From positions 100,230 through 164,229 of the forward strand of contig JACKBI010000015.1 in NCBI GenBank assembly GCA_020634615.1: a DNA stretch of 64,000 nt, in the 5' to 3' direction. This stretch comes from Anaerolineales bacterium (GTDB lineage: Bacteria > Chloroflexota > Anaerolineae > JAAEKA01). Below, piece by piece: positions 6,794 to 47,513 of this stretch. The first letter of the stretch is position 1, and each line of letters begins with the position of its first letter. Both the position numbers and the translations under genes were made by a program. The notes below the pieces were generated by a model. That model saw only the letters and a program-made list of their open reading frames with translations. It did not search any database and was not told the DNA's origin.

Positions 6794-8362
6794 CTATTCC
6801 TGGTCCACCAACTCGCGCTTGAGGATTTTGCCGGTGGCGGTCATCGGCAGAGCGGAGCGGAACTCGATATAGCGCGGGTATTTGTAAGCTGCCAGGCCCT
6901 CGCGGGCGAAGGACATGATCTCGTCCACGGTCGCCGTTTCGCCCGGCTTGAGAACGACGTAGGCCTTGATCTCCTCGCCCATCTTGTCATCGGGCACGCC
7001 CTTGACGGCAACCAGCGACACCTTGGGATGGGTCATCAGGTATTCCTCGACCTCGCGCGGATAGACGTTGAACCCACCGCGGATGATCATCTCCTTCAGC
7101 CGGTCGACGATGTAGAAATAGCCGTCGGCGTCGATCTTGCCCATATCGCCGCTGTGGAACCAGTCGTCGCGTATCACCTCGGCGGTCGCGTCGGGGCGCT
7201 TGTAGTAGCCTTTCATCAGTTGGTGACCGCGGATGACAACCTCGCCCACTTCTTCAGGCCCCAGCGCGGCATGGCTGTCACTGGCCGGATCAACAATGCG
7301 CATGTCCGTCAGCCAGATCGGCTGGCCGATGGAGCCGACCTTGCGCGGCCGGTCGAGCTGGTTGAAACAGGCTACCGGCGACGTCTCGCTCAACCCGTAG
7401 CCCTCAAGAATCGGCACGTCGAAGCGCTCCTCGAAGTTGCGCAGCAGCTCCACCGGCAGCGCCGAGCCGCCGCTGACCGCGATGCGCAGGGTGCTGCGAA
7501 TCAGGTCGAGATCGAACTTCTCTGCGTCGGGGTAGCTCAGGAGGCCCCAATACATCGTTGGTACGCCCGCAAATACCGTGACGCCGTCGCGTTGCATGAT
7601 GCCCAGCACAGCATCGGCGGCAAAGCGCGGCAGCAAGGTGATGGTTGCGCCGGAGCAAAAACCGGTATTCATGAGCACCGTCTGGCCAAAGGAGTGGAAC
7701 AGCGGCAGCACCACCAGGCAGACGTCGTCCTTGTTCATCTGGATCATATCGCGCGTGGCTACCGCGTTCATGACCATGTTGCTGTGGGTCAATTCCGCAC
7801 CCTTGGGGCTGCCCGTGGTGCCGGAGGTGTAAAGGATCACTGCCGTCTCGTCGGGCATCGTCTGCACCGTGTCGAAGACCGGCGACTGGCCGGCCATGAC
7901 GCGGCCCAACGTCGTCACGCCCTCGCCTTCCACCGGCGAAGCCGCGGTTGGATCAGCCGTGGCCACGATGAGGTGGCGGCAGTCGGGAGCCTGCTGAAAC
8001 CCCTCCAGCGCCATCTGCGCCATGGGCAGTTCAGGCGTGCCCTGGAAGACGATCAGCGCGACCGCATCACTGTCTTTGAGGTGATAGGCGATCTCGCGTC
8101 CTTTGAACAGCACGTTGAACGGCACCACAGTCGCGCCCAGCTTCAGAATGGCGTAGTAGGCGATGGGAAAGTAAGGGATGTTGAGGCACGACAGCGCGAC
8201 CTTGTCGCCGCGCTGCACGCCAAGTTGGCGCAGCCCGTTGGCCAGTTGGTTAGCTGCGCCGTTGACCTGGGCATAATTGAGCTTGGTGTCGTTGAAGATC
8301 ACGGCAGGCTGAGCCGGGTTGGCCTGAGCGCTGGACTCCAGCAGCATCGCTAGGTTGAGCAT
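6794..8362 (-). CDS. fadD: Long-chain fatty-acid--CoA ligase (AMP-dependent synthetase)
   Basis: AMP-binding motif YTSGTTGSPKGA; 522 aa; GGAGGT ribosome-binding site before the ATG. Confidence 0.9.
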   Translation of the reverse strand: MLNLAMLLESSAQANPAQPAVIFNDTKLNYAQVNGAANQLANGLRQLGVQRGDKVALSCLNIPYFPIAYYAILKLGATVVPFNVLFKGREIAYHLKDSDAVALIVFQGTPELPMAQMALEGFQQAPDCRHLIVATADPTAASPVEGEGVTTLGRVMAGQSPVFDTVQTMPDETAVILYTSGTTGSPKGAELTHSNMVMNAVATRDMIQMNKDDVCLVVLPLFHSFGQTVLMNTGFCSGATITLLPRFAADAVLGIMQRDGVTVFAGVPTMYWGLLSYPDAEKFDLDLIRSTLRIAVSGGSALPVELLRNFEERFDVPILEGYGLSETSPVACFNQLDRPRKVGSIGQPIWLTDMRIVDPASDSHAALGPEEVGEVVIRGHQLMKGYYKRPDATAEVIRDDWFHSGDMGKIDADGYFYIVDRLKEMIIRGGFNVYPREVEEYLMTHPKVSLVAVKGVPDDKMGEEIKAYVVLKPGETATVDEIMSFAREGLAAYKYPRYIEFRSALPMTATGKILKRELVDQE

Positions 8363-8410
8363 GGTGTACCTCCAAAGAGTGGGTGTGGGTTGGCCGATGG
8401 GCCTATCTTA

Positions 8411-8480
8411 GCGTAGGAATGAGGGGATGGCAAATGATAGGGAGGGGAGGAAAAGGAGGAAAAAGGGGGAAAGGGGGGTC
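8411..8480. repeat. Purine-rich arm of the family-A G/A-rich repeat (half element)
   Basis: gggaggggaggaaaaggaggaaaaagggggaaagggggg, immediately followed by a family-B element. Confidence 0.5.
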
Positions 8481-8485
8481 AAGAG

Positions 8486-8574
8486 ACTTCGGAAGTCGCC
8501 GGTTGTGTACACATCTACATTTGCAACGAGAACGACCAGTCCGCGACGTGCTGGCGACTTCCGAAGTATGAGGG
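8486..8574. repeat. Family-B palindromic element with GACTTCGGAAGTCGCCG terminal inverted repeats, copy 1
   Basis: gacttcggaagtcgccgg…N52…ctggcgacttccgaagt. Confidence 0.7.
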
Positions 8575-8762
8575 GCGGCATCCGGTTTGACAGGCGGACA
8601 TGGGCGGGATACACTGGCTACACCACGCTTCACGACCAGGAGTCGTAACTACTCACCCGTCTTTCCCGCGGAGGCGGGAATCCACGCTTCACGAGCACCA
8701 GACTCCCGCCTCCGCGGGAGTGACGTAACGATAAAGGCTGAGTAGCAACCAGGAGTCACTCA

Positions 8763-9179
8763 ATGCCGCTTGCTGTTATCCACGACCGACTTGCTGTTTC
8801 CGCTGTCCTCTTTGCCGGGGTTTGCGCCGTCTGGGGCTTCATCAACTACCTTCGCGGGCAGGACATGACCAGCGGCTACTGGGGTGCTCTGGTGATCTGC
8901 GAAATCCTGATGATTGTCCAGGCCCTCTTTGGGATCATCCTCGCCATCGAGGGCAACCACCCACCGCGCGCGATCGTCCACTACCTCTACGGCATCAGCG
9001 CGGTCATCTCGCTGCCGGCAGTCTATGTCTTCACCGGTGGGCGGGACACACGACGCGAGAGCCTGCTCTACGCGGTTGTCAGCCTCTGGCTCTTCGGCCT
9101 GGCGATCCGCGGCATCACCACCGGCTCGGAGCAGGAGACGGTGGCAATGGTACTGCGTTCGATTGTTGGGTTGATTTAG
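8763..9179 (+). CDS. Hypothetical 4-TM membrane protein
   Basis: Hydrophobic 138-aa ORF followed by a strong terminator. Confidence 0.5.
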   Translation: MPLAVIHDRLAVSAVLFAGVCAVWGFINYLRGQDMTSGYWGALVICEILMIVQALFGIILAIEGNHPPRAIVHYLYGISAVISLPAVYVFTGGRDTRRESLLYAVVSLWLFGLAIRGITTGSEQETVAMVLRSIVGLI

Positions 9180-9195
9180 GACGCGTCTACGAGAA

Positions 9196-9242
9196 AGCCA
9201 GGGCCTCCCTGCTGTTGGACGGCAGGGAGGCCCTGGCTTTTT
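9196..9242. terminator. Bidirectional rho-independent terminator
   Basis: aaagccagggcctccctgc-tgttggacg-gcagggaggccctggcttttt: a 16-bp stem with flanking A and T tracts. Confidence 0.8.
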
Positions 9243-9276
9243 ACTTCCGGTTAAAGTTCGGTGGATGCAGCGAACC

Positions 9277-10551
9277 CTACCAGGATTCGCTGTAGATGAG
9301 ATCACCGAGTGGTGGAGTGTAGTAGGTGAAGTCGGTCAGGTTCCCGCGCATCATCCCTCCGTTGGTGTCCAGTACCGAGAAGATGTTATCGTAGGTGGGC
9401 AGCACACCGCCAGGTGGCGGAATTATGGGGCCGGGCAGGCAGCTAAGGCCGCCTCGGGCATGCACAAACCAGACATCGTCGTAGTTGTTCAATATGGTTG
9501 GGTCGAGAGACGTGATCCCGGCGGCTTCCCATTCCTGGCGCACTTCAGCCGCGGGGCGTCCCTGGATGTCGGCGGTTTGAGCGATAGCCCCGTCGCTCAG
9601 CCACGTTTCCAGAGCGTCCACCGATGTGTGAATCGCGTAGATATTGGTCGTGTCTCCGGGCACGCCTGAACAATTGTAATTCACCAGCGAGAGTGCATAG
9701 TCGGTGATCCAGTCGGGTTGAAGCTGTGAGCGGTTAGCGCGAACGCCGACATCTGGCAAGTATGTCTGTGAACTCTGCAATGGCGCGCGCGAGCTTGCTT
9801 GCCCGATCATGGTCTGTGCCACAGGGATCATCTTCTCGACAGACCATTCGGACGTGTACATGACGTAGCTCAGGTCGCCGTCCACCCACATCAGCACTCC
9901 CAATACGGCCTGATTGATGCCGTCTACGGCTACCACGCCCGGATCGTGCGCTAGGACAGGCGTCCCGTTGATATCGATGATGCGGCTCTGGCCCCTGCCG
10001 GCCTCAGCTTCGCTCAAAGCCCACCTGTGATACTCGATTGCCGCATGATCTCGATAAATCGAGATCATGATTCCGTCCGAGTAGTGAAGCGCGACGGCGT
10101 GCTGGGTGGGAGATAACTCGATGAATTTCAGCGTAATGCCGTCGGGCAGCAGCGATGGCAGCCGGATCGGTACTCCCAGGGCGGCTTCAGCCTCGTCCAA
10201 CGTCACGTATTTGCCGCCATCATAGTTATGACCATCTGCGCGCGGGATCGGGGGAATGAAATGAAGAACCGGCCCCGTGGGGGTGATATAGGGCAGGGGC
10301 GGCGGCATGGTAGCAACTGGCTGCGGCGTTTGACCGTTGGGCGTAGGCAGAGGGTCGGCCGCTGTAGTCGGTGGAGGCGGGGCAAGGGTGGCGATGATGG
10401 GCGAGGATTGGTCTGCGGCAGCAACTGCCGGCGACAGAGCGCTGCCTCCGGCGCAGCCACTGGCGGCCGCAGCAACGACCAGCAATCCGGCGACGAGAAC
10501 GGCAATTTCCAGACGTACAAACGAATGGTTTTTCACGGTGTGTCTCCTCAA
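9277..10551 (-). CDS. Secreted lipoprotein with a Pro-rich linker and a conserved C-terminal ~160-aa domain of unknown function
   Basis: Lipobox LVVAAAASGC. The C-terminal 160 aa are near-identical to the C terminus of the 10720..11868 gene. Confidence 0.6.
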   Translation of the reverse strand: MRRHTVKNHSFVRLEIAVLVAGLLVVAAAASGCAGGSALSPAVAAADQSSPIIATLAPPPPTTAADPLPTPNGQTPQPVATMPPPLPYITPTGPVLHFIPPIPRADGHNYDGGKYVTLDEAEAALGVPIRLPSLLPDGITLKFIELSPTQHAVALHYSDGIMISIYRDHAAIEYHRWALSEAEAGRGQSRIIDINGTPVLAHDPGVVAVDGINQAVLGVLMWVDGDLSYVMYTSEWSVEKMIPVAQTMIGQASSRAPLQSSQTYLPDVGVRANRSQLQPDWITDYALSLVNYNCSGVPGDTTNIYAIHTSVDALETWLSDGAIAQTADIQGRPAAEVRQEWEAAGITSLDPTILNNYDDVWFVHARGGLSCLPGPIIPPPGGVLPTYDNIFSVLDTNGGMMRGNLTDFTYYTPPLGDLIYSESW

Positions 10552-10719
10552 TTCAACCCGGCTTGAAAAGCGCTGGTGCTGTGATCACAAGCTAGCAGGA
10601 CACTGCATTGGGATTGGCCTTAAACTCCTGAACCGAAACGCACAGGCCTCCTTGCTATTCGACAGCAGGAAGGCCCTGACTTCTTACCTCCGGTCAAAGT
10701 CTGGTGGATGCAGTGAATC

Positions 10720-11868
10720 CTACCAGGATTCGCTGTAGATGAGATCACCGAGTGGTGGAGTCCAGTAGCTGAGGTCGGACAGGTTCCCACTCATCAGCGA
10801 GCCACCTGTGGTGTCCAGTACCGAGTAAATGTTATCGTAGGTGGGCAGCACACCGCCAGGTGGCGGAATTATGGGGCCGGGCAGGCAGCTAAGGCCGCCT
10901 CGGGCATGCACAAACCAGACATCGTCGTAGTTGTTCAATATGGTTGGGCCGAGAAACGTGATCCCGGCGGCTTCCCATTCCTGGCGCACTTCAGCCGCGG
11001 GGCGTCCCTGGATGTCGGCGGTTTGAGCGATAGCCCCGTCGCTCAGCCACGTTTCCAGAGCGTCCACCGGTGTGTGAACCGCGTAGATATTGGTTGTCTC
11101 TCCGGGCACGCCTGAACAATTGTGATTCATCAGCGAGAGCGCACGGTCGGTGATCCAGTCGGGTTGAGGCCGCGAGCGGTTGGCGCGAACGCCGACACTT
11201 GGCAAGAATGTCTGTGAACTCTGCGATGGCGCGCGTGAGCTTGTCTCACTCTCCACCACATTTATGTTTACCATGTAATCATCATCGAAAAATTGGTCCG
11301 GATTAACCAAGCTACCAAGTGGTGGTGTGAAATCAGGCTCGGTGAACGCTCCGATCCCGATTTGAACAGCATCTTCAGTCAGAATTACGTAAATGTTGTC
11401 ATATTCCGGCGGTTCCCAACCTTCTGGTCTAAGGTCTTCCGAAGGAAGGGTCAACGGCATTGTCTTGGTACCAACTTGGAAATTGACTCCTCCACGGACA
11501 TCAATCACCCAAATTGTATCTTGCAAAGCATAAAACTCATCTGGCAGCCGGCCAATCTGAGTTCCATTCCATTCGTTACGCACATCGGCTTCGGGACGGT
11601 TTTGCACGCGCGCCGCAGTACGGATTTCGCTTTCACGTAACCAATTTTCGAGTTGCGTAGCGGAAACCTCTGCGGCGTAGACCTTTGTGTCCGCGCTTAG
11701 ATTACCAGCATCTAGTTCAACACTACGTAAAGCTTGTTCCACAATGGAAACCTGCGACACAGTTGATGCGCTTGCCCCTGATCGCCTAAGAAGGCTTGTA
11801 CCTGTAATGATCATGCTTATCACGACAAGCATGATTCCAACACTAACTACTGCGCTACGGTGTGACAT
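10720..11868 (-). CDS. Membrane-anchored secreted protein carrying two copies of the same unknown ~150-aa domain
   Basis: N-terminal signal anchor. The proximal domain copy is diverged and AT-rich; the distal copy is near-identical to the 9277..10551 C terminus, and the duplication includes the downstream terminator. Confidence 0.6.
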   Translation of the reverse strand: MSHRSAVVSVGIMLVVISMIITGTSLLRRSGASASTVSQVSIVEQALRSVELDAGNLSADTKVYAAEVSATQLENWLRESEIRTAARVQNRPEADVRNEWNGTQIGRLPDEFYALQDTIWVIDVRGGVNFQVGTKTMPLTLPSEDLRPEGWEPPEYDNIYVILTEDAVQIGIGAFTEPDFTPPLGSLVNPDQFFDDDYMVNINVVESETSSRAPSQSSQTFLPSVGVRANRSRPQPDWITDRALSLMNHNCSGVPGETTNIYAVHTPVDALETWLSDGAIAQTADIQGRPAAEVRQEWEAAGITFLGPTILNNYDDVWFVHARGGLSCLPGPIIPPPGGVLPTYDNIYSVLDTTGGSLMSGNLSDLSYWTPPLGDLIYSESW

Positions 11869-11925
11869 AGAATACGCCTCCTGATTATGTTTGCAGGGAT
11901 TGGTAGTTGAAAGTAAGGAACGAGG

Positions 11926-12762
11926 TCAGTTACAGCCACCTATGAACCACGAGTTACTTCCATAGGAAGTAGCCTGATAGCTCGTGTTAGGTGTAGTGAT
12001 GACCATGCCGTAGTTTGTCCCTACATTTACCCACTGATGGCTTGTATTTTTATACTTGACTTGAGAGAACGTACTCGGCCCCAATCCATTGTTAGGGGGA
12101 TTCTGGACTTCTCCGCCGCCAATGGTAAGTGCTGGCACTACGAAGTCTAGCCAAGCTCCAGCCACCAAGTTACTATCGATATAGGCAAGATGGCCTGGCC
12201 CACTTGCGTCTTTCTCAACCCTGTATTCATGTGTTTGCCCAGGTGGTGCATTCGCAACATCCATTTTCGAGTATCCGTTGTAGTTCTGCACAATTACAAC
12301 GTGGCGGGTTTCAAGTTTCCAACTACCGTAGCGACTACAGCCTGGCGTCACGAAGCAAGGATCCTTTAACCAGCCACTTTCAAGGACATGCCAACCACCT
12401 TGGGTTGGGTAGCCTGCTATTCCAACTCTCATGAACGACCACAGGCCATCACGTATAGTTGGATCACCCACGGCAATGTAAGATCGAATGCCAATTGGCT
12501 GGAGAGAAGCATTTATTTCTCCCCACGCATTACATAGCGTACCGCTAGATCCACAGTAGCCACATGTCCCCGTTTGGAGAAGAGGCTTCTCAACTTCCTC
12601 TTTTGGAGCACCGCTGTTTTGCGGTTTTGCGTTGGCTCCAGGTACCATGATCAATAACAGGAAGATCAGAGAAATTCCCGCCATTGTTGCTCTACGTATC
12701 ATGTTTGGTTCCTCCTGTCTCGAAGCAAATATCCGTGGGTTTGAACGCCCTCGAATGCGCAA
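11926..12762 (-). CDS. Secreted Cys-containing hypothetical protein (low-GC island)
   Basis: Signal peptide MAGISLIFLLLIMVPGANA; CGYCGSSGTLC motif; GGAGG ribosome-binding site; local GC about 50% against a 65% background. Confidence 0.55.
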   Translation of the reverse strand: MRIRGRSNPRIFASRQEEPNMIRRATMAGISLIFLLLIMVPGANAKPQNSGAPKEEVEKPLLQTGTCGYCGSSGTLCNAWGEINASLQPIGIRSYIAVGDPTIRDGLWSFMRVGIAGYPTQGGWHVLESGWLKDPCFVTPGCSRYGSWKLETRHVVIVQNYNGYSKMDVANAPPGQTHEYRVEKDASGPGHLAYIDSNLVAGAWLDFVVPALTIGGGEVQNPPNNGLGPSTFSQVKYKNTSHQWVNVGTNYGMVITTPNTSYQATSYGSNSWFIGGCN

Positions 12763-12840
12763 TTTGTCGCATCCCTGTTTTTAACCTCTATTTGGAAAAC
12801 CCACATTCCAGCTTCATTATCATCAATACAATCATATCAT

Positions 12841-12852
12841 CCCCCCCCCCCC
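12841..12852. repeat. C12 homopolymer (G12 on the coding strand of the flanking genes)
   Basis: Twelve consecutive C between the LuxR stop and the start of the secreted-protein gene. Confidence 0.9.
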
Positions 12853-12896
12853 GTGTCTACTACACTTTAGAGCAGTTTTTCACTATTCGGCGCGTG

Positions 12897-13178
12897 CTAC
12901 GTCTTCACCCATCCCTGCCGAATCGCAACCAGCGCAGCTTCGGTGCGCGAGGCCACGCCCAACTTGCGAAAGATGTTGCGGATGTGAAACTTGACCGTGT
13001 CTTCCGTGACGTTCAACTCCCTGGCGATCTGGGCATTGGTCGCGCCTCTTGCCAGCACGCGCAACACCTCCAGTTCCCTCGACGTAAGAGGGCATGGCGT
13101 AGGCTCTTCGTCATGCTCCGGTGCCGCGTCGTTGTTGGTTGGATCTTCTGTACCCATGACATCCCATCCCGATCCCAT
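12897..13178 (-). CDS. LuxR-family HTH transcriptional regulator (stand-alone GerE-type HTH)
   Basis: LTSRELEVLRVLARGATNAQIARELNVTEDTVKFHIRNIFRKL. Confidence 0.8.
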   Translation of the reverse strand: MGSGWDVMGTEDPTNNDAAPEHDEEPTPCPLTSRELEVLRVLARGATNAQIARELNVTEDTVKFHIRNIFRKLGVASRTEAALVAIRQGWVKT

Positions 13179-13208
13179 GACCCTGTCGAAGTCGTTCTGG
13201 CGGTTGGT

Positions 13209-15110
13209 TTATCCGTTGGCTGCCGGAGCCGCGCCGGGCCCGACCAGGAAATACGCAGCCCAGGGGGTGTAGCTGCTCTCCAGCACCTCATCAGTGAGCA
13301 CCTGGCCGGCGCTGTCGCGGATCACGCGTCGCCAGGCCACATCCATGCCGTTCTTGGCGTATTCGACTTGGCGCACTTCGCCCTCAGCCAGGCTGGCGTC
13401 GGTCTGGTAAATCGGCGCAGGCGGCGGCGATTCTTTCAGAATCTCCGGACCGGTGACTTCCACGTTCCAATCCGGTTTGGTACCGTAGAAGTTGAAGGTC
13501 AGCGTGCCTTTGACCTCATCCATGACCGACTTGATGATGATGTGGTGGTCGGTGGTGTTGCGGAACTTGAAGTCCACTGTCGGCGTGTAGATCGTGGCAT
13601 CCAGACCGGGCTGACCGTACCAGCCAACCACGTAGCCGTGGTTCCAGCGCTCCTCGATGGGGAAGCCGCCGTAGAACGCAGCGCGGAACGCCGTGGTGCT
13701 GACCTGGCAAACGCCGCCGCCGATGCCGACGGCCGTCCGGTCGCCCCAGATGATCAGCGAGTCGGTGTAGCCGTTTTCAGCGTTCACGTCGCCGATGGCG
13801 TTGTTGAAGGAGAAGACGCCGCCGGGCGGCACCACGGTGTTGTCCACCGCGTTGGCCGCCGTCGCGATGTTGTGGACGCGGTCGGCGCTGGAGCCTTTGA
13901 AGCTGGTGGTGCCGGTGGCGACCAGCTCCACGATGCCCATCTCGTCGATCTTGTGCATGTTGACGGCCGGCTCGACCAGCGTCAGCGGCAGCAGCGCGTT
14001 GTGGTCATTGCTCAACACGGCCTGGCGAATAGTGGCCAGCGTCGCGTCGACGTCCAGCACGCGGCCGGTCTGACTGGGTGTCACCACCTTGATCTCGCCG
14101 GTCTTCGGGTCGTAGTCGAGGCGAGCATCGCGCGGCTCGCGTGCCAGCTCGGCCGCCCATTCCTGGACCTGCGGGCGCAGCGGCTCCACATCCAGGCTGG
14201 CTAGCAACTGCATGCTGCCGTCCAATTGGGGTGTCAACTCGAGGCTGGCCAGATCGGTCAGCGTCTCTTGCGAGATGGTGAAGTTGGGCGGCGGCGCTTG
14301 GGCGTCCAGGTCCGGCTCGGCGGCGGTCAGGACCACCGGACCGCTCAATACCTGGCGCATGAACACCTCAGCCTGGCTGACGTCCGCCAGCAGCGGGGTC
14401 TCTTCTTTGACCACCAAGTCGACCGATCCACCCTCGTTAGCCAGCAGCGCATCGTAGATTGCCGAGTGGCTGGCCGATACATCCAGCGCGTAGCCGGTCT
14501 GGCTGGCTGTTGAAATCACATCCTGTCCGTCAACGCGCAGCGTAGCCTCGGCCACGGGACGGTTGATCTCGCGAGCCCGCGCTTCCAGCCAGGCCAGCCC
14601 GGCGGAGCGATCGACCGCTTCGTCGGCCAGCACCTCGCGGCCGAAACGGTAGGCCGAAAGCTGCTCCTGTAGATTCGCCTGCAACGCAGCAATCTGGTCG
14701 GTGAACTCCAAACCTCCCCCTTGGCGCCGGCCGATCTCATAGGCAGCCGCGGCCGCGCTGTCCGCGTCGAAGTTGACACCCAGGTCGGCGGCCGTCAGCG
14801 TCCACGACTGGTCGCCGTAGCGAACCACCACCGGGGCCAGCGGGTACGGGTCAAAGGCGACACTCAACCGTTCCCTGGCTTCAGCCAGCGTCAGCCCGCT
14901 CATGTCGATGCCGCGCACCGAAACGCCATCGTAGATGCGGTTCTGGTGTTCGCGCTGATAGTAGGCGACGCTGCCAATGGCAAACACCGCCGCCATCCAG
15001 ACGATCAGCGTCAGCAGGATCAACAGGACGCGCAGCAACGTGCCAAACCAGGAGGACTTGGCTGACTGTGGTTGAACAGTGGGTGGTGTCGTGGCTCTGG
15101 CGTTGGCCAT
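13209..15110 (-). CDS. VanW family protein (N-terminal TM, peptidoglycan-binding-like repeats, VanW domain)
   Basis: The C-terminal GGGVCQVSTTAFRAAFYGGFPIEERWNH is the VanW signature. Confidence 0.75.
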   Translation of the reverse strand: MANARATTPPTVQPQSAKSSWFGTLLRVLLILLTLIVWMAAVFAIGSVAYYQREHQNRIYDGVSVRGIDMSGLTLAEARERLSVAFDPYPLAPVVVRYGDQSWTLTAADLGVNFDADSAAAAAYEIGRRQGGGLEFTDQIAALQANLQEQLSAYRFGREVLADEAVDRSAGLAWLEARAREINRPVAEATLRVDGQDVISTASQTGYALDVSASHSAIYDALLANEGGSVDLVVKEETPLLADVSQAEVFMRQVLSGPVVLTAAEPDLDAQAPPPNFTISQETLTDLASLELTPQLDGSMQLLASLDVEPLRPQVQEWAAELAREPRDARLDYDPKTGEIKVVTPSQTGRVLDVDATLATIRQAVLSNDHNALLPLTLVEPAVNMHKIDEMGIVELVATGTTSFKGSSADRVHNIATAANAVDNTVVPPGGVFSFNNAIGDVNAENGYTDSLIIWGDRTAVGIGGGVCQVSTTAFRAAFYGGFPIEERWNHGYVVGWYGQPGLDATIYTPTVDFKFRNTTDHHIIIKSVMDEVKGTLTFNFYGTKPDWNVEVTGPEILKESPPPAPIYQTDASLAEGEVRQVEYAKNGMDVAWRRVIRDSAGQVLTDEVLESSYTPWAAYFLVGPGAAPAANG

Positions 15111-15256: not shown

Positions 15257-17767
15257 TCACACGCCGCTGAGCAATTCGACGCGGCTGTCGCCGCCCGGCT
15301 CGGCTACCGTCACTTGCCAGAAGGGTGTCCAGGCCAGCGCAACCCGGTCAACGTCCACATCGGTGCGCCGTGGCTTGACTTCATAGGTCTGGATATCGTC
15401 CACCGCTGTCTCCCAACGCTGCGTGATCTCGGCGGTAGCGTCTTCCAGTTCCTTCTCCAGATCCTTGATGTCCTGTTGATAGGTGGCGATCTGGTCCTGC
15501 GATTCTTCCACATCGCGCTTGGCGCGGGCGGTCATCTCGCGCTTCTTGGACGCCGAGGACAGGATCGTACCGGCGCGCCTTCTGCGGCCGCCGAACAGAC
15601 TAAGGATCGTGTCGCCTGCCGAAACCATCTCCTGTTGCTTGCGCGCATCATAGGTGGCCTGGTCATCGGCCAATTCCTGTTCCTCGCGCCGCAGCTTTGC
15701 TTCAAGCGCGTCGATCTTCTTTTCATATGCATCGCCCAGCTTATCGACCTCGGCATCGCGCTGCTCGCGCGCCAACTGCTGGCAACGAATCTTGAAAGCC
15801 CGCTCGTCCTCGCCCGGCTCACCATAAGCCGCCAACGCCGGATTGAAGAGCAGCGGATAAGTCCAGTTGCGATAGAGATAGTCGCTCAAGTCCTTGGACA
15901 GTGCGGAAAGCTCGCGGGCGCTGTTGATCGAGTCGGGCACGTCGCCGAAGATGGCATCCGCTTCGGGCTGTCCGTCCAGCGCGCTCAAGTCAAGGTCAAG
16001 TTGCACCGCCTGATCCCAGCGTACCAGTCCGCTGCCGCCGGGCGGCTCGACCGCCAGCACGACCGCCTGCCGCTGATTGACGTTGCGTTTGTCGTCTACA
16101 AAATGAACCGTACCTGTGCCCAATATCTGTGCTTCGTAACGAATCTTCTTGTCGGTGACGTTGAGCCGCGTGCCCTGTTCCTTTTCCAGCGCGCCGACTG
16201 CATCGACCATCGACCGGGTCGCAGGCAGGTAGACCTGTGGCAGGTCGGGCGGCAAGGCCGGCGCCACGGCGCTGGTAGTCGCTGCGTAGCTGGCAATGCC
16301 TGGGGCCGGCGGCGCGGCCGGCTGACTGACCTCCTCAGCCGGTTGGGTGGCGGCCGGCTGGCTGGCCATCAACGTCTTGACCTGGCTGCGGGTCAAGGGA
16401 CCGCGCAGATAGCTCATGGCCCAGCGGGTTTGAAAGATGACTGGACTATCTTCGTTGATGTTGTGCATCAGAAAAACGCGGCTGCCCAGGCTGGGGATGA
16501 TCTTGTCAAGCTGGCTGCGGTTGAAGCCGCTGCCGGCTGTGGCCGAGACGGTTTCCAGCCCTTCCAGCACGCGCGCCTTGTCGCGCTCCGCCTGCAGCTT
16601 GCCGATGAACCAGGTGCCGGCGTTGGTCAGTCCCTTGTAGTCCAGGTCCACCGGGTTCTGGGTCGTCAGCATCATGCCGACGCCGAAAGCGCGCGCCTGC
16701 TTCATCAGCGTCAGCAGCGGGCGCTTGCTGGGCGGTTCGCCGACGGGCGGGAAGAAGCCGAACACCTCGTCCATATAGACCAGCGCGCGCAGGCTGGTGG
16801 TACCTGGCTGCGCGCGCATCCAGGTGATCACCTGTTCCAGCAGCAGGGTGACGAAAAACATCCGCTCGGCGTCGCTGAGATGTGCAATGTAGAAGATGCT
16901 CATGTTGGGCTTGGCATCGCCGCCGTAGAGCATATGGTCGATGTTGAGCGGCACGCCCTGTATCCACGCACCGAACGCCGGCGAGGCGATCATGTTATTC
17001 AGCGTAATCGCCAGCGCGAAGCGGTCCTTCTGCGGGAAGAACGTATCGACGTCGAAGACGCCCAGCTGACGCACCGGCGGGTTCTGGATCGAAAGGATCA
17101 GCTTGGGCAAGTCGAGATCCTGGCCCTTACGCCAGTAGTACTCGAAGATCGTCGCCAGCAGGATATGCTCGCGGCTGCGCATCGGATCGGCTGCGATGCC
17201 CACCAGTCCCAGCAACGCGCTGACGGTGCCGCTGATCTGTTCGCGCAGCGCCTCCTGGTTGTCGTCCCAGTTCAGCTCCGGCGCGGCCAGCGAACTGACA
17301 ATGCTGACCGGCACACCGGCATCGGATCCGGGTGTGTAGATGACGAAATCGGCGCTCTCCTTCAATGCCCGGATGCGCTCCGGTCCCTGATCCCACGACT
17401 CCAGCCCGTTGCGCCAGTCGTTGGCCGTCTTCTCAGCAAAAGCCTCGGGGGTCATGTCCTTGCGGCGGGCATCGTCGGCATTGATCCAGGGCAGGAAATC
17501 CTCACCGCGGAGGTCGGGAAATGTCAGCAGCAGGTTGGTGATGTCCCCCTTGGGATCGATGATGATCGCCGGCACCTTGTCCAGCGCAGCTTCCTCCAAC
17601 AGGTCAATGCAGAGGCCAGTCTTGCCGCTGCCAGTCATGCCGACACAGACCGCATGAGTGGTCAGGTCGCGGGCGTCGTACATCAGGGGCGTCTCACCCA
17701 GCGTGCCGGCGGCAAGGTCAAAGTCCTTGCCAAGATAAAAAGCGCCAAGTTTCTCTGCGACGGGCAT
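15257..17767 (-). CDS. HerA/FtsK-like (DUF87) P-loop ATPase with a C-terminal coiled-coil region
   Basis: Walker A GMTGSGKTG followed by IIDPKGD; Walker B VYMDEV; a coiled-coil tail of ~150 aa. The start is at MPVAEKL, preceded by a GGAGAG ribosome-binding site. Confidence 0.65.
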   Translation of the reverse strand: MPVAEKLGAFYLGKDFDLAAGTLGETPLMYDARDLTTHAVCVGMTGSGKTGLCIDLLEEAALDKVPAIIIDPKGDITNLLLTFPDLRGEDFLPWINADDARRKDMTPEAFAEKTANDWRNGLESWDQGPERIRALKESADFVIYTPGSDAGVPVSIVSSLAAPELNWDDNQEALREQISGTVSALLGLVGIAADPMRSREHILLATIFEYYWRKGQDLDLPKLILSIQNPPVRQLGVFDVDTFFPQKDRFALAITLNNMIASPAFGAWIQGVPLNIDHMLYGGDAKPNMSIFYIAHLSDAERMFFVTLLLEQVITWMRAQPGTTSLRALVYMDEVFGFFPPVGEPPSKRPLLTLMKQARAFGVGMMLTTQNPVDLDYKGLTNAGTWFIGKLQAERDKARVLEGLETVSATAGSGFNRSQLDKIIPSLGSRVFLMHNINEDSPVIFQTRWAMSYLRGPLTRSQVKTLMASQPAATQPAEEVSQPAAPPAPGIASYAATTSAVAPALPPDLPQVYLPATRSMVDAVGALEKEQGTRLNVTDKKIRYEAQILGTGTVHFVDDKRNVNQRQAVVLAVEPPGGSGLVRWDQAVQLDLDLSALDGQPEADAIFGDVPDSINSARELSALSKDLSDYLYRNWTYPLLFNPALAAYGEPGEDERAFKIRCQQLAREQRDAEVDKLGDAYEKKIDALEAKLRREEQELADDQATYDARKQQEMVSAGDTILSLFGGRRRRAGTILSSASKKREMTARAKRDVEESQDQIATYQQDIKDLEKELEDATAEITQRWETAVDDIQTYEVKPRRTDVDVDRVALAWTPFWQVTVAEPGGDSRVELLSGV

Positions 17768-17931
17768 ATGTTCTCTCCAAAGTACCGGTTTGGGAACAGT
17801 CTGATCTGGTGCGCGCGGCGACCCTGCCGCCATCGCCGCAATTATAGCATACTGGCGAAAAACATGGGAAGAGAACCACGATGTGGAAGTTCGACTTTGC
17901 GGAACAAGTCGAACTTCGCACAGATCCCGAT

Positions 17932-30843: not shown

Positions 30844-31403
30844 CACAGCCGCGACTCATCGTCCACATTTGCCCTGCAGAGTCACAAGAGGTGAAACACC
30901 TGCATCACGACGTGGATGCTACTTCGAGAATTTTAAGTTGACGAATGACACGGGACGTAGTATAATTCCCAATAGAACATCCGTTCCGCAATGGTGTGTT
31001 CTCATCTTTTCTAGTAATATTCCATAACCCGAATGCTCTCAGCAGGACTGTCCGTAGGCAGTCCTTATGGCTCATCTCCATAGTCTCCGCAAAGTCCGCC
31101 GCAATCATCGCTATGAGAATTCCTGAGTCACGCTTCTGTTTCTCATGAAATCCGACGTCTATCTGCGCTCCCAACTTCAGGACATCATCGCTGGCATCGC
31201 AAGCACGGCTAACTGGCTGCCGGCAGTTGCATCGTCGGACGATGCTGATTTGTTCCATGCCGGCTTTCTTGCAGCACTCAACGCTGTGGCGGTGTCGCTC
31301 AGCATTGATGTCCGCGCAAATCAAGTGCCTGCGCCAGTAGTTCTGGTCACAGATGATTCGAAGAGCACGTCGCACACGGGGATCAAATGAGCGGCAGCCG
31401 TTC

Positions 31404-32597
31404 TTACGGCCTCAATGACTGCAGCAGACTGTTCAATTCCGGGGAGAGCATGATCTTGTTGCCCGGGTCCTTGAACATCGTTTCCAGAACCTCGCGCAGC
31501 AAGAAGCGATTGATGTCATCCTCAGACATGCCGTTCTCTTTGGCATGGTTATATGCATCGGCCAAGGTCATCAAGGCATCGTGCGTTGCCGCAGCTCGCT
31601 GTTTATGAATTTCACCGCTTGCCATTGCGACTCGCATTGATGTTCGGGCAGCCTTTATTTCAACAGGTGGCTGAACATTCTCAATCATGACTGATGTGAC
31701 CTTCACATTCCACGCAGTTGCAGCAGCATGCGCCGTGGTCTCTATGGACTTCTGCATGGCAGCGTATTGAGATGGATCGAGCAGTTGGTCAAGGTTCATC
31801 TTGTGGAACTCGACCCGAGCCGCCGCTTCAATAGCTGATTGCGTTTGCCTGGTCCAGTCAGGCGTATGCAGTAGGATATTCTGCAACACGACAGCGTGGG
31901 TATCTTCATCCCAATCCTCCTTGCCCAGCACCACAGCGTCTGGCAGGTCAATTCCATAGCTGGCACACAGGGTCACTGTCACCGGAATGCAGTCACTGCT
32001 CAATACATGGGGGATGTCGAGACGTATCTGTTGTCGTCCTAGAGGGATGGACTTTTTGGGATATTCAAACGGGTCAGTTTTCAGCCGCGAAGGACCTACA
32101 ATGCGCGTCTGCTGTTTTCCGCGTTCCAAAACAAGGGCGTTCATGGGCTTGACGATCAGCTCATGCGGTCCCATCAGCGGCCCCTTCTTGTCTTTGGGCA
32201 CCACTATCTTCGCATCCTCAACGATCATGAAGCCGCGCGTCATGCCCAACGCCAGACGCAGGTGATGCATTAGTGCCTCCCATTCTCCACCAGGATAAAG
32301 GTGGCGCACAATCACCGCCGACAATATGAAGGTTAACGCCGTGGCTGCCAGTGCCGCCAAGAGTGCAATGATCCCGCCTTGAATGTAGCTGACTACATAC
32401 AACACAGCCAACAGCCCAACGATGAACCAGCGCCGCTGTTTTGTGATATGCCACATCTCTGACAGCGCGCCAAGGGCGAAACCGGCAACCGTCAGCTCAT
32501 GCTGCCAGCCATCCAGAAAGACGCCGATGAAGTAGCCGACGAGTCCGCCGGCTGCACCTGCGATTAGGACTCTGATGATGCTACGAAGTCGGGGCAT
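31404..32597 (-). CDS. SPFH (band 7/stomatin-like) domain membrane protein
   Basis: Four N-terminal TM helices followed by an SPFH-like beta/alpha domain. It lies in a low-GC segment (30850-32760). Confidence 0.65.
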   Translation of the reverse strand: MPRLRSIIRVLIAGAAGGLVGYFIGVFLDGWQHELTVAGFALGALSEMWHITKQRRWFIVGLLAVLYVVSYIQGGIIALLAALAATALTFILSAVIVRHLYPGGEWEALMHHLRLALGMTRGFMIVEDAKIVVPKDKKGPLMGPHELIVKPMNALVLERGKQQTRIVGPSRLKTDPFEYPKKSIPLGRQQIRLDIPHVLSSDCIPVTVTLCASYGIDLPDAVVLGKEDWDEDTHAVVLQNILLHTPDWTRQTQSAIEAAARVEFHKMNLDQLLDPSQYAAMQKSIETTAHAAATAWNVKVTSVMIENVQPPVEIKAARTSMRVAMASGEIHKQRAAATHDALMTLADAYNHAKENGMSEDDINRFLLREVLETMFKDPGNKIMLSPELNSLLQSLRP

Positions 32598-32853
32598 TGA
32601 GTGTCCCTCCCAAACAAACGCAAATTTACTTTAGACTTTGATCACCGGCTGATCTGGCCGAGGAACGGCTTTTCAGTCGATTAACGATGCGACAGCATTA
32701 GTATAGCACAAGCTAGAGCAATTACATATGCGCAAAATCATGTTTGATACGGATCATTCAGCCGATTGCAAACCGGTGTGGAGTACATAACATTCGCCAG
32801 GTTGCTGGCGGCAACAGATTGCGGGACTGGGAGAACAATGTTACTATTCCACC

Positions 32854-34080
32854 ATGCCGCCCATCCTCTTCTTCACTCCCGACCCACCCACCGCGCTGTG
32901 GCAGGACAAGCCGCAGATCGCGCGGCGGTTGGCGCGGCGATTCACGGTGGTGATGGCCGGACCGGAGCTGCATCTGCCGTCCCTGCGCAGCCAGCATCGC
33001 GCCGGCCACTGGCATCTGGCCGATCTTCGCACGCCTCCGCTGACCCGCCTGGACGACAACCTCTACCGTTTCACCTGGTCGCCGCTCACCGCGGCCACCG
33101 GCGCGCCTATCCTCGGTAGCTGGACCGCTGCCGCCCGCCAACGACGCTGGCAATCCGCCCTGAACCAACTCGCCGCCACCCAGCCCCTAGTCCCCAATCC
33201 CCAGTCCCCATCCCCCATCCTCTGGCTCTTCCGTCCGGGCATGCTGCACTTCGTGGACGAGTTCAACCCGCAGTTGGTGATCTACCACGTGGTGGACGAG
33301 TACAGCGCATATCCTGGCCTCAGTGACGAGCAGCGAACTTTGCAGCGCAACCTGGACCGGCGGTTGACAGAGCGCGCGGATTTGGTATTCTGCACGGCCC
33401 GCAGTCTGGTCGAGGAGCGGCAGGCCATCAATCCCAACACGCACTACATGCCCAACGCGGTGGATTTCCGCGCCTTTCAACGTGAGCTGGCATCCGCGGA
33501 CGCCACGCCGCTGGACGAGCTGCCCCGGCCTGTGCTGGGTGTCGTCGGCGGAATCAATGCCAAGCTGGACCTGGAACTGCTGGCACCAGTGGCGCGGCAG
33601 CGGCCGGATTGGACGCTCGCGCTGGTGGGGCCGGTGAGCTACGGCGTCAGCGATGCAGACCTGGCCAGCCTGCGCAGCCTGCCAAACGTGCACTTCACGG
33701 GGCCGGTCGCGCACGAGCAGGTGCCGGCGGTGATCGGCGAGTGCGACGTTTGCCTGATCCCGTACCGGTTGAATGAGCAGACGCGGCACGTCAATCCGCT
33801 GAAAGTGTACGAGTACCTGGCAGGCGGCAAGCCAGTAGTGGCGACGCCGCTGCCTGAGTTGGCACAGTTCGGCAACACAGTACGCTTGGCCGGCGACGCG
33901 GCCGGCTTCATCGCTGCAGTCGAGGCGTCACTGCCCGAAACGGCCGATCCGCTGGCGCAGGCGACTCGACGGGCTGTGGCGGCAGCCAACACCTGGGATT
34001 TGCGCGTCGCGCGGATGATCGAGCTGGTGGACAGCGCACTGAGGGCTGCCCCACAGACGCCGCCAAACGATGCATGGTAA
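32854..34080 (+). CDS. Glycosyltransferase (group 1, TuaH-like), paralog B
   Basis: …CDVCLIPYRLNEQTRHVNPLKVYEYLAGGKPVV. Same architecture as the 29632..30843 gene. Confidence 0.75.
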   Translation: MPPILFFTPDPPTALWQDKPQIARRLARRFTVVMAGPELHLPSLRSQHRAGHWHLADLRTPPLTRLDDNLYRFTWSPLTAATGAPILGSWTAAARQRRWQSALNQLAATQPLVPNPQSPSPILWLFRPGMLHFVDEFNPQLVIYHVVDEYSAYPGLSDEQRTLQRNLDRRLTERADLVFCTARSLVEERQAINPNTHYMPNAVDFRAFQRELASADATPLDELPRPVLGVVGGINAKLDLELLAPVARQRPDWTLALVGPVSYGVSDADLASLRSLPNVHFTGPVAHEQVPAVIGECDVCLIPYRLNEQTRHVNPLKVYEYLAGGKPVVATPLPELAQFGNTVRLAGDAAGFIAAVEASLPETADPLAQATRRAVAAANTWDLRVARMIELVDSALRAAPQTPPNDAW

Positions 34081-45811: not shown

Positions 45812-47297
45812 TTACGCCTTGATCAAGGAAACATACGTGCCCTGCACAGTTGAATAGAATGAGACAGTTGTCCAACCAGGCGACCAGATGCGCTGGTCGA
45901 TCCTGGGGCCAATCTTGCCATCCGGGCTAATCTGGTGCATGTGCATACGTCCATTACCATTTTTCAACAAGAACAGGTAGTTCTGCCCGCCGATTGCGTA
46001 GGTCTTCGCAGTTGTCCACCCCGAGGACCAGTCGCGATTGTCAATGACCGGTCCAATCTTTCCGTCGGCGTTGATCTCGTTGACGTGCATCCGCCCATCA
46101 CCCGCTTTCAGCAGGAATAGGTAGTTCTTTCCTCCAATCGCGAATGTGCTCGCGGATGTCCAACCTGAAGACCAATCCTGGTTGTCAATCATCGTTCCAA
46201 TCGTACCATCGGCATTGATTTCATTGACGTGCATCCGCCCGTCACCCGCTTTCAGCAGAAACAGGTAATTCTTGCCCCAGATCGTGTAGATCGCCGCTGA
46301 TGTCCAGCCCGATGACCAGTCCTTGTTGTCGATGAGTGCCCCGATCGTGCCATCGGCATTGATTTCATTGACGTGCATCCGCCCGTTTCCCTCTTTCAAC
46401 AGAAACAGGTAATTCTTGCCCCAGATCGTGTAGATCGCCGCTGACGTCCAGCCCGATGACCAGTCCTTGTTGTCAACGATGTCCCCAAAGCTTCCGTCAG
46501 CATTGATCTCGCGAACAATCATCCACCCATCTCCCTTCTTCAGAAAGAACAGATAGGTCTTCGAGCCGATGGTAAACGGGGCACTTGTCGTCCACCCATC
46601 CGACCACGATCGCATGTCTACCGTGTGATTCACCTCGCCGTGCGGGAACAACTTGTAGACGTGCGAGTTTCCGGCAGTTAGCTCCGCGGCTGTGGCTTGA
46701 TCGCCCGGACTAAACGGACCTGGTGACAGCGAACACAACAGATCGACATACCCGCTGGGTGGAGCAATAAACACATCCTTGGTTGGATCAACTGCAAAGG
46801 CGCGCCGGCAGTAGTGCATCATGGATAGATAATCATAGTTGCCAACATTGACGCTGGCGGCGTCACTCATCTTGATGAAATTTGCAGCCTTCACAGGGTC
46901 AACGTTGTCAAAATCAATCGTTACCCAATCATCCCTGTCACTGCGCATATGTTCATGAATCATCCCCACGGCATGACCAATCTCGTGTTCAATCCTGCAA
47001 CTGATGTTTGGGTTCGGGTTCTCGGGAACCAGGACGATCTGAATGCCGCCAGCCATTCCAGCCGCAGTCGAAAAACAGAAATCCAGCGCGGCCCCGCCAA
47101 ATGATTGAAATGAGATGTAGTTGGTCTGATTGGCACGGGGGATCAATGTGATGCCGACCGCCAGATCGTTCCATGCTGCAATGGCAGTGTTGACACGACT
47201 GACCGTGGTAGGAAAGACACTCTCGTCAATGTCAATTTGATATGGCACACATCCATCCGGCCAGTACGTTTTCTTGTCGCTCGTGATGATTCCCATG
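45812..47297 (-). CDS. Astacin (M12A) zinc metalloprotease with six C-terminal ~45-aa tandem repeats
   Basis: HEIGHAVGMIHEHMRSDRDD and the Met-turn SMMHY. The protein begins directly with a mature-astacin-like N terminus (…WPDGCVPYQID…) and has no signal peptide or prodomain. It lies in a low-GC segment. Confidence 0.8.
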
Positions 47298-47513
47298 GTA
47301 TTGTCTCCTTGTATCGTACGTGCGAAAACAGGTTGATGTGTCGGTTTCTCGTCACCAACATGGTCCGAGCATATCACAAGGCGCGCTTCACCAGCGCTTC
47401 ATGAGAGATTTCACAGGAAACGGTTTACCAACCAGCCGACAGAGGCGTCAGCTTGCTTTGGCCCCCCGCAGTCTGACGTCACAGAGAAAACAGGCGGAAA
47501 CTTCCAGGAAGGA

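Follow-up and report, generated by a model that had tools for sequence, protein, structure and literature searches.

A slot of recombining secreted-protein genes behind a poly-G promoter-like site in an uncultured Chloroflexia bacterium: a candidate contingency locus

The 64,000-nucleotide (nt) stretch of contig JACKBI010000015.1 analysed here (assembly GCA_020634615.1, Anaerolineales bacterium), hereafter the window, carries three co-directional genes on its minus strand, designated p1, p2 and p3, which occupy a slot between a small regulator gene and a convergent gene coding for a membrane protein of 138 amino acids (aa). The products of p1 and p2 end in the same domain, designated X, and p3, located upstream of p2, encodes a secreted protein. 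Comparison of the slot with related loci suggests that the X-coding modules exchange sequence with one another, that the gene content of the slot differs between strains, and that the promoter-like site preceding it holds a poly-G tract of variable length. Taken together, these features probably define a contingency locus for envelope proteins, in which X would be the tethered partner of a p3-type protein.

Exchange between X modules and structural alleles of the slot

The product of p1, a predicted lipoprotein, comprises a signal peptide, a Cys in the context AASGC, a Pro-rich linker, a middle domain without known family and the C-terminal X, and that of p2 comprises two profile domains, an internal one (X') and a terminal X, behind an N-terminal hydrophobic anchor. 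An earlier description of this DNA from its letters alone (the sequence-only reading) had held that these N-terminal parts are unrelated and that the last parts of the two genes are almost identical, and both statements hold. Local alignment delimits a direct repeat (9193-9797 and 10635-11243) of 605 nt with 558/610 identical positions (91.5%) and three small indels; the coding part of the repeat (9277-9797 against 10720-11243) is 93% identical (488/524), the module proteins share 151 of 175 residues, and identity outside the repeat is about 50% on both sides. Divergence is strongly non-uniform along the module, with 2 differences in the central 241 nt (9383-9623) versus 7-20% at the edges.

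The same reading had extended the near-identity to the terminator and about 100 bp downstream of the genes. This region is indeed duplicated, but the roughly 84 nt past the stop codons are 81% identical (70/86) and the second hairpin has decayed. The hairpin downstream of p1 has a stem of 20-22 bp and a folding energy of -45 kcal/mol (gene strand) or -51 kcal/mol (plus strand), with z about -7, and it is followed by TTTTT on the plus strand and TTTCT on the minus strand; with its U-run on the plus strand, it thus serves as a bidirectional intrinsic terminator for p1 and for the convergent 138-aa gene. The copy downstream of p2 (about 10645-10690) is degraded (-30 kcal/mol, z -2.1), its stem being shortened and its U-run lost.

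An alignment of eight X modules revealed block-wise mosaic tracts, which argue for gene conversion. The p1 module of the window contains 12 consecutive p2-type sites (9388-9436) within p1-type flanks, and this block is absent from the 99%-identical locus L004. Within the central tract, the p1 module therefore differs at 2 positions from the p2 module of its own genome and at 12, all between 9388 and 9436, from the p1 module of L004. L001 has no p2, and yet the 5' third of its p1 module includes a run of 17 consecutive p2-type sites. Max-chi-square permutation tests gave p of about 0.001 in all five triplets. The X copies thus appear to exchange sequence among themselves and also with alleles from other strains, and gene conversion would keep the centre of the module near-identical. 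Judged from these site patterns, the exchange seems to be bidirectional and ongoing, and the most recent tract in the window strain probably went from p2 to p1. The proposal of the sequence-only reading that the two 3' modules were recently homogenised is in line with this, gene conversion being the right kind of process.

Between the p1 and p2 modules of the window, the ratio of non-synonymous to synonymous substitution rates (dN/dS) is 0.98; the counts behind it are 9.5 synonymous and 28.5 non-synonymous differences, every one of which lies at an edge of the module. For orthologous X pairs it is mostly 0.3-0.5. The replacement differences cluster at both edges of X, and two alternative C-terminal hairpin haplotypes are shuffled among loci.

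A simple and young tandem duplication of the 3' end and terminator, without ongoing exchange, would account for the copying of the terminator along with the coding part and for the decay of the copy after p2, as expected of a redundant element. Such a history is nevertheless very unlikely, given the uneven divergence described above, blocks of informative sites that contradict a single tree, and orthologues in near-identical strains that differ exactly where the paralogues agree. Moreover, the X'-X architecture of p2 is old, since it is also found at about 65% nucleotide identity in the loci L005 and L008.

Structural alleles were compared among loci 85-99% identical to the window and having the same flanking genes wherever contigs extend far enough. 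The window, L004 and L009 (three assemblies) share the order p3-p2-p1. In L001 a 239-aa secreted protein, unrelated or very distant to p3, precedes p1. A single 213-aa gene, in which a signal peptide (SP) is joined to X, fills the slot in L002, L003, L006 and L010, the last of these being a 493-kb contig of a metagenome-assembled genome (MAG) with full synteny. Finally, in L013 the 138-aa gene comes directly after a p2 whose X module is a hybrid: on the 5' side all 20-31 informative sites are of p2 type, and on the 3' side all 33-44 are of p1 type. This is the product expected of a single crossover between direct repeats, and an assembly mis-join would give the same pattern. From these assemblies, the slot appears to exist in at least four structural forms within one Chloroflexia species-level group, presumably because the X-module copies recombine and the same repeats can delete or add genes.

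The near-identity of the modules, their mosaics and the alleles themselves might in principle stem from repeats collapsed or mis-joined during assembly. In keeping with such an origin, the edges of the identical tract are exactly where the L009 sequence stops and where L004 has a scaffold gap, the structure of L013 is what a mis-join would produce, and homopolymer lengths are prone to error. However, the p3-p2-p1 order with both copies recurs in three separate assemblies, all metagenomic, the SP-X alleles come from four independent data sets including the 493-kb contig, and the G tract recurs in each of the seven assemblies covering the promoter. In addition, the two copies of the window differ at 52 positions and have distinct flanks, so they are probably not collapsed. 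We consider an assembly artefact as a general explanation to be highly improbable.

The p3-X gene pair and the X family

In five diverged lineages, namely the window, L005, L008, L011 and L012, an X gene is preceded at a distance of 28-57 nt by a gene of the p3 family; this count covers every diverged X gene for which upstream sequence was available. L005 and L008 are about 65% identical to the window at the nucleotide level, and the X proteins of L011 and L012 are about 28-30% identical. On the basis of this recurrent arrangement, p3 and X genes appear to form a conserved gene pair. The p3 family is tiny and unannotated, with conserved Cys pairs, and had no match in Pfam, NCBIfam, PADLOC, PHROGs or the PDB. 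A structure model of p3 built from a six-sequence alignment (predicted local distance difference test, pLDDT, 41; predicted template modelling score, pTM, 0.42) was unusable for fold assignment. A jelly-roll hydrolase or glutamic peptidase was considered for p3, on account of two conserved Glu about 90 residues apart; it received no profile support, the second Glu is absent from the 239-aa protein of L001, and the idea is kept as a lead only.

The four close relatives with a single gene in the slot lack the body of p3 and keep its signal peptide, which continues in frame into X. At the junction there is an imperfect GTGGAGAG-like microhomology of 8-10 nt, the sequences at this point being ...GAGGAAGTTGAGAAG in p3, ...GTGGTGGAGAGTGAG in p2 and ...AAAGAGGTGGAGAGTGAA in the fusion. 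The distant locus L007 has an independent SP-X fusion (protein P0008) with its junction elsewhere, after EKPLLQ. Since complete p3 and complete X'-X genes occur in distant lineages, the fusions are best read as deletions rather than as the ancestral state. The locus would document the origin of a new secreted gene, in which a deletion joins the signal peptide of one gene to the domain of another.

The 239-aa protein of L001 (L001:700-1419) is secreted and Cys-bounded, takes the position of p3-p2 and is followed directly by p1. It belongs to a small family of its own (P0024-P0026), which the p3 family matched with a BLASTP E-value of 0.044 and an hhalign probability of 57% over only 31 columns. 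In L012 a third gene (L012:2498-3130), coding for a membrane-anchored protein of about 200 aa, follows the pair formed by a p3-like gene and a lipoprotein gene with two X domains. It was examined as a counterpart of the N-terminal part of p1 and dismissed, having no similarity to p1 and no Pfam match. In L008 the p2-like gene (L008:774-1925) is interrupted in its first X domain, giving open reading frames (ORFs) of 118 and 248 aa; either it is a pseudogene with a frameshift or the sequence contains an error.

A profile search of the window found three X copies only: those at the ends of p1 and p2, and X'. As the sequence-only reading had noticed, X' is an older copy; it spans residues 42-188 of p2 and is 30% identical to the terminal X of the same protein (BLASTP E 1e-17). 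It has a 10-residue insertion and no Cys pair, and a DDDYMV motif comes after it, a feature found also in the wider lipoprotein family. Members of this wider family, about 210 aa long, begin with a signal peptide that has a lipobox-like Cys, contain X once or twice together with a conserved D-D-x-Y-M-x-E motif, and have a tail rich in Pro and Thr. The lipobox-like Cys, read by eye, occurs in p1 as ...VVAAAASGC, in P0011 as LANGC, in P0014 as SLGC, in P0016 as FGGC and in P0017 as LAGC. Residues L51, W74, W94, R99, G101, P106, Y120, P148 and G150 are invariant in the broad X alignment. Two Cys, in the contexts NCSG and SCLPG, are both present or both absent across the alignments of the family, and this co-variation fits a disulfide and an extracytoplasmic location.

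The domain had been said to match nothing recognisable, and searches of Pfam-A, NCBIfam, PADLOC, PHROGs and PDB sequences, with single sequences and with profiles, were indeed empty even at E-values up to 5-10. An AlphaFold2 model from a nine-sequence alignment (pLDDT 79, pTM 0.74; core residues 31-100 above 84) predicts an alpha+beta fold with an N-terminal helix, a beta-hairpin, a three-helix insertion and further strands. Fold searches with this model gave no match in the PDB and none in BFVD. The small helix-on-sheet extracytoplasmic domains (cystatin-like, NTF2-like, PepSY) are among the closest known systems, but none of these folds could be significantly superposed on the model.

X is also rare. 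Eight proteins were found among 5.8 billion clusters, and the profile retrieved 15 representatives or clusters at E <=0.001 in 1.84 billion. In 185,579 species-representative genomes it occurred at one locus, in a MAG labelled "uncultured Chloroflexia bacterium"; one locus was found in JGI metagenomes, and none in viral contigs. Counts from pattern-based scans for X are lower bounds. A phage origin was rejected, there being no PHROGs match, no viral contig and no BFVD fold match, and so was membership in a defence system, as PADLOC gave no match. X is a domain of about 150 residues with an alpha+beta fold, new and extracytoplasmic; it is present in very few proteins, almost all of which are predicted lipoproteins or membrane-anchored.

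Poly-G promoter-like site, base composition and a proposed history

The candidate promoter lies 129 nt before the start of p3 and combines TAGACA, a 17-nt spacer of the sequence C-G12-ATGA, and TATGAT with an upstream TG. This region is common to all close alleles, whatever gene comes next. The G12 tract is the only G/C run longer than six in the 64 kb; in mononucleotide shuffles of the window the mean longest run was 9.5. The tract is present in 7/7 assemblies covering the promoter (six distinct loci, L003 being a duplicate of L002), and its length varies: G12 with a spacer of 17 nt in the window, G13 with 18 nt in L009, G13 in L004, where the contig ends, G9 with spacers of 17, 16 and 14 nt in L001, L010 and L006, respectively, and G10 with 19 nt in L002 and L003. 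At 99% identity, L009 and L004 count as the same strain as the window, yet have G13 versus G12. No poly-G tract was found upstream of the distant cassettes L007 and L012, the tract being specific to close relatives of the window. In the leader of p3, of about 125 nt, a small inverted repeat (ATGCGACAAATTGCGCAT, 12755-12772) is kept in L002, L006 and L010; it had no Rfam match and may be a regulatory hairpin.

Transcriptional phase variation by promoter homopolymers is known from opc and from vlp of Mycoplasma hyorhinis. Homopolymers between -10 and -35, such as the poly-C of neisserial fetA and the poly-G of neisserial porA, change transcription (PMC5320596). The tract described here resembles them in being a G/C homopolymer of 9-13 nt in a sigma-70-like spacer, polymorphic in length and associated with envelope-protein genes. 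Unlike them, it comes from an uncultured environmental Chloroflexia bacterium rather than a host-adapted pathogen and precedes genes without relatives among known phase-variable genes. Its anatomy and length polymorphism bear the signature of transcriptional phase variation, with which they would be consistent.

Base composition sets part of the slot apart. The GC content at third codon positions (GC3) is 0.46 in p3, 0.42 in the 5' 612 nt of p2, 0.68 in the p2 X module, 0.685 in the N-terminal part of p1 and 0.69 in the p1 X module, against 0.79-0.83 in neighbouring core genes. The sequence-only reading had seen p2 as a chimera of about 50% and 65% GC; the direction is right, and the figures are 47.7% for the 5' part and 60.1% for the X module. 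The low-GC unit consists of the promoter region, p3 and the 5' part of p2, and not merely half of p2. Its edge in p2, at about 11257, is no more than some 15 nt away from the repeat boundary (11243-11257) and matches the position of the fusion junction in other strains. In the distant relative L005, the p3-p2 cassette has a uniform GC3 of 0.52-0.535 including the terminal X, next to a flanking gene with 0.85; the window, L007 and L008 have a terminal X with higher GC3 than the N-terminal part. The step at the repeat boundary and the uniform cassette of L005 fit an overwriting of the terminal X of p2 by a higher-GC copy.

Wherever flanking genes could be measured, the cassette is low in GC relative to its host, and its contexts differ in distant relatives. 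No integrase or other mobility gene, flanking repeat, insertion scar or donor was found. Of the earlier proposal of a horizontally acquired gene converted by its neighbour, the conversion agrees with the blocks of informative sites, but the acquisition is not demonstrated, neither donor, integrase nor scars having been detected. On the whole, the sequence-only reading is borne out in part; it did not include the p3 partner, the structural alleles, the SP-X fusion gene or the variable poly-G tract of the promoter.

Two further stretches of lower GC content occur elsewhere in the window. One (about 53-57%; 45812-47377 and 47514-51089) carries an astacin-like M12A metallopeptidase gene beside that of a large BTAD/AAA/TPR regulator of STAND type, and the other (31000-33000; 53-55%) includes an SPFH/Band-7 gene as well as the beginning of one for a group-1 glycosyltransferase.

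These observations can be assembled into a history. The ancestral unit would have been a low-GC pair of p3 and p2, the latter with the X'-X architecture. In the lineage of the window, the terminal X of p2 would have been overwritten by the higher-GC type of X also present in p1, leaving a compositional chimera. In other strains, deletion between short microhomologies would have removed the body of p3 and the 5' half of p2, giving the in-frame SP-X fusion. The X module and its terminator would act as portable homology for the conversion, deletion and perhaps addition of genes. The promoter-like site is shared by all of these forms, and its G tract varies, giving spacers of 14-19 nt; because a poly-G spacer in a common promoter varies in length, transcription is probably switched or tuned by slipped-strand changes, which leads to the proposal of a contingency locus. 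The weakest steps in this account are that the products would be cell-envelope proteins under diversifying or frequency-dependent pressure, and that X would be the tethered partner domain of a secreted p3-type protein.

Several points weigh against it. All comparison sequences are metagenome assemblies, in which repeats of this length can be mis-joined, L013 possibly being such a case. The promoter is a consensus match only, promoters of Chloroflexia being poorly characterised, and homopolymer lengths are error-prone in sequencing. Low GC content may have causes other than foreign origin, and the dN/dS of about 1 between the copies of the window is based on 38 differences only. Since homology between p3 and the 239-aa protein is unproven, the pairing rule is uncertain for p1. 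Finally, X in the fusion genes would be released, not tethered, which fits a simple tethered-partner role less well.

Functional readings, related systems and gene neighbourhood

If the contingency locus is accepted, its products may be viewed in two ways. One is that the locus encodes variable surface proteins: the three products would be exposed envelope components, for instance adhesins, matrix or sheath-associated proteins, or targets of phages or predators, with expression switched by the poly-G tract and with sequence and gene content shuffled by recombination, much like the mycoplasma variable lipoproteins or the outer-membrane proteins of Neisseria. Replacements at the edges of X with shuffling of the two C-terminal hairpin haplotypes, the lipoprotein or anchor and Sec signals of the proteins, the co-varying and probably disulfide-forming Cys pair, and a VanW/PG_binding_4 cell-wall-associated protein gene in the neighbourhood all agree with this view, as does the variable homopolymer in the promoter spacer, which is typical of surface-structure genes (PMC5320596). 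It does not by itself explain the strict p3-X pairing or the retention of X after deletion of p3, and the family is too small for a proper test of positive selection. A role of this kind is quite conceivable, although we would stop short of calling it probable.

Alternatively, the p3-type protein might be a secreted antibacterial or envelope-active effector, and the X lipoproteins and anchored proteins the tethered immunity or inhibitor proteins of the producer; strains would then differ in the effector carried and would keep orphan protectors. This would account for the fixed order of a secreted-protein gene and a tethered X gene, separated by short gaps, in five diverged lineages, for the loss of p3 with retention of X at least twice independently and at different junctions, and for the presence/absence polymorphism and divergent alternative first genes at the same slot. 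The window, which has p3-p2 together with a p1 lacking the 239-aa protein that precedes it in L001, shows the pattern that orphan immunity genes would be expected to give. On the other hand, profile searches detected no toxin, bacteriocin or immunity family in p3, p1 or p2, the structure model of p3 is unusable (pLDDT 41), the SP-X fusion products are untethered, and the shared, homogenised part alone cannot give specificity for different effectors. A phase-variable promoter is also unusual for bacteriocin loci. An effector with its protector is therefore a possibility to be held tentatively.

We regard the two functions as about equally credible, neither being likely in its own right: the effector with its protector explains the strict pairing and the repeated loss of p3 with X kept, and variable surface proteins fit the homopolymer of the promoter better. 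More speculatively, and with considerable doubt, the p3 and X families might constitute a previously undescribed two-component extracellular system of a narrow Chloroflexia lineage, made of a secreted effector or recognition protein and a tethered partner, in combinations that would differ between strains and be partly orphaned, reshuffled by recombination through the conserved X module and switched on and off by the poly-G promoter, for phase-variable strain discrimination or antagonism based on two protein folds without known relatives.

Concerted evolution of surface genes is known from neisserial opa and pilE/pilS, from Borrelia vls and vlp/vsp, and from mycoplasma variable lipoprotein families. 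The slot resembles these systems in the exchange of tracts between paralogous modules, in its mosaic alleles and in the alteration of gene number through repeats. It differs in having 2-3 copies and no silent cassette archive, and in the homogenisation of a conserved C-terminal domain and terminator rather than of a hypervariable region; moreover, no dedicated recombination machinery or signal was seen here. Bacteriocin and polymorphic-toxin loci, for their part, carry cognate and orphan immunity genes. They are similar to the slot in that a secreted-protein gene is followed closely by a tethered-protein gene, in presence or absence among strains and in the keeping of the downstream partner after upstream deletion. 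No recognisable toxin, export or immunity domain was found in the slot, however, and no dedicated secretion system nearby.

The mechanisms are thus of known kinds, namely gene conversion between paralogues, repeat-mediated deletion and homopolymer promoters, and X and p3 are new families. The setting is unusual, in that the bacterium is an uncultured and apparently free-living (environmental) member of the Chloroflexia; nearly all known contingency loci and recombining surface-gene families come from host-associated pathogens. If the proposed contingency locus is real, stochastic switching of surface or antagonism functions would extend to free-living filamentous bacteria, and the extracytoplasmic domains would gain a new member, whose conserved genetic partner offers a concrete handle on its function.

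Positions of the features of the slot and its borders are collected in Table 1. The regulator gene adjoins the slot in all close relatives with sequence reaching that far, as judged by synteny.

Table 1. Features of the slot and of its immediate borders (window positions)
Feature	Position	Strand	Remarks
138-aa membrane protein gene	8763..9179	+	Convergent; other boundary of the slot in every close allele
X module, copy 1	9193..9797	-	Last ~173 codons of p1 and 84 nt downstream including terminator; local alignment
Hairpin, 22-bp	9194..9240	both	Inverted-repeat search, terminator scan, folding
p1	9277..10536	-	419 aa; GTG start at 10536, Shine-Dalgarno sequence GAGGAG 7 nt before; ORF list
Near-identical tract	9383..9623	-	Counterpart 10829-11069; holds putative p2-to-p1 conversion sites 9388-9436
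X module, copy 2	10635..11243	-	Last ~174 codons of p2 and decayed terminator copy
p2	10720..11868	-	382 aa; ATG start at 11868, Shine-Dalgarno sequence AGGAGG; N-terminal membrane anchor, X' and C-terminal X
Low-GC stretch	11257..12880	-	46-51% GC, GC3 0.42-0.46; promoter region, p3 and 5' 612 nt of p2
X' (internal older copy)	11305..11745	-	p2 residues 42-188; BLASTP and alignments
p3	11926..12702	-	258 aa; ATG start at 12702, Shine-Dalgarno sequence AGGAGG; Sec-secreted, Cys-containing, predicted all-beta
Promoter-like site	12831..12859	-	TAGACA, 17-nt spacer, TG, TATGAT; 5' of p3; consensus scan
Poly-G tract, G12 (C12 on plus strand)	12841..12852	-	Within promoter spacer
Small LuxR/GerE-type helix-turn-helix regulator gene	12897..13178	-	Pfam GerE, E 3e-23; directly upstream of the slot

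The mechanical ORF of p1 reaches a TTG at 10551, so that the protein has 419-424 aa depending on the start; P0004 corresponds to this protein in the gene calls of another assembly. Its middle region (residues 132-248) aligns weakly with DUF4367 over the full profile length (positions 4-110 of 110); this likeness concerns that region only, and its score is below the Pfam cut-off (14.2 versus 22.1 bits), the orthologue P0003 having no match even at E 1.

An Rfam search of 8400-13300 returned only sub-threshold miRNA-like matches to hairpins, and a tandem-repeat search gave nothing relevant. An inverted repeat with 25-nt arms, 88% complementary, and an 18-nt loop (8658-8725) is located upstream of the 138-aa gene; its Rfam matches were likewise miRNA-like only and all sub-threshold. 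In the interval that separates the 138-aa gene from the acyl-CoA synthetase gene, a purine-rich stretch (8300-8600) shows a strong GC-skew spike of +0.36 to +0.42 and contains short GGAGGAAAA(A) tandem repeats at 8446-8477. On the other side of the slot, upstream of the VanW/PG_binding_4 gene, an 858-aa protein with a HerA/DUF87-type and TrwB-like ATPase signature is encoded at 15257-17833, and it is kept in the Chloroflexia MAG L010.

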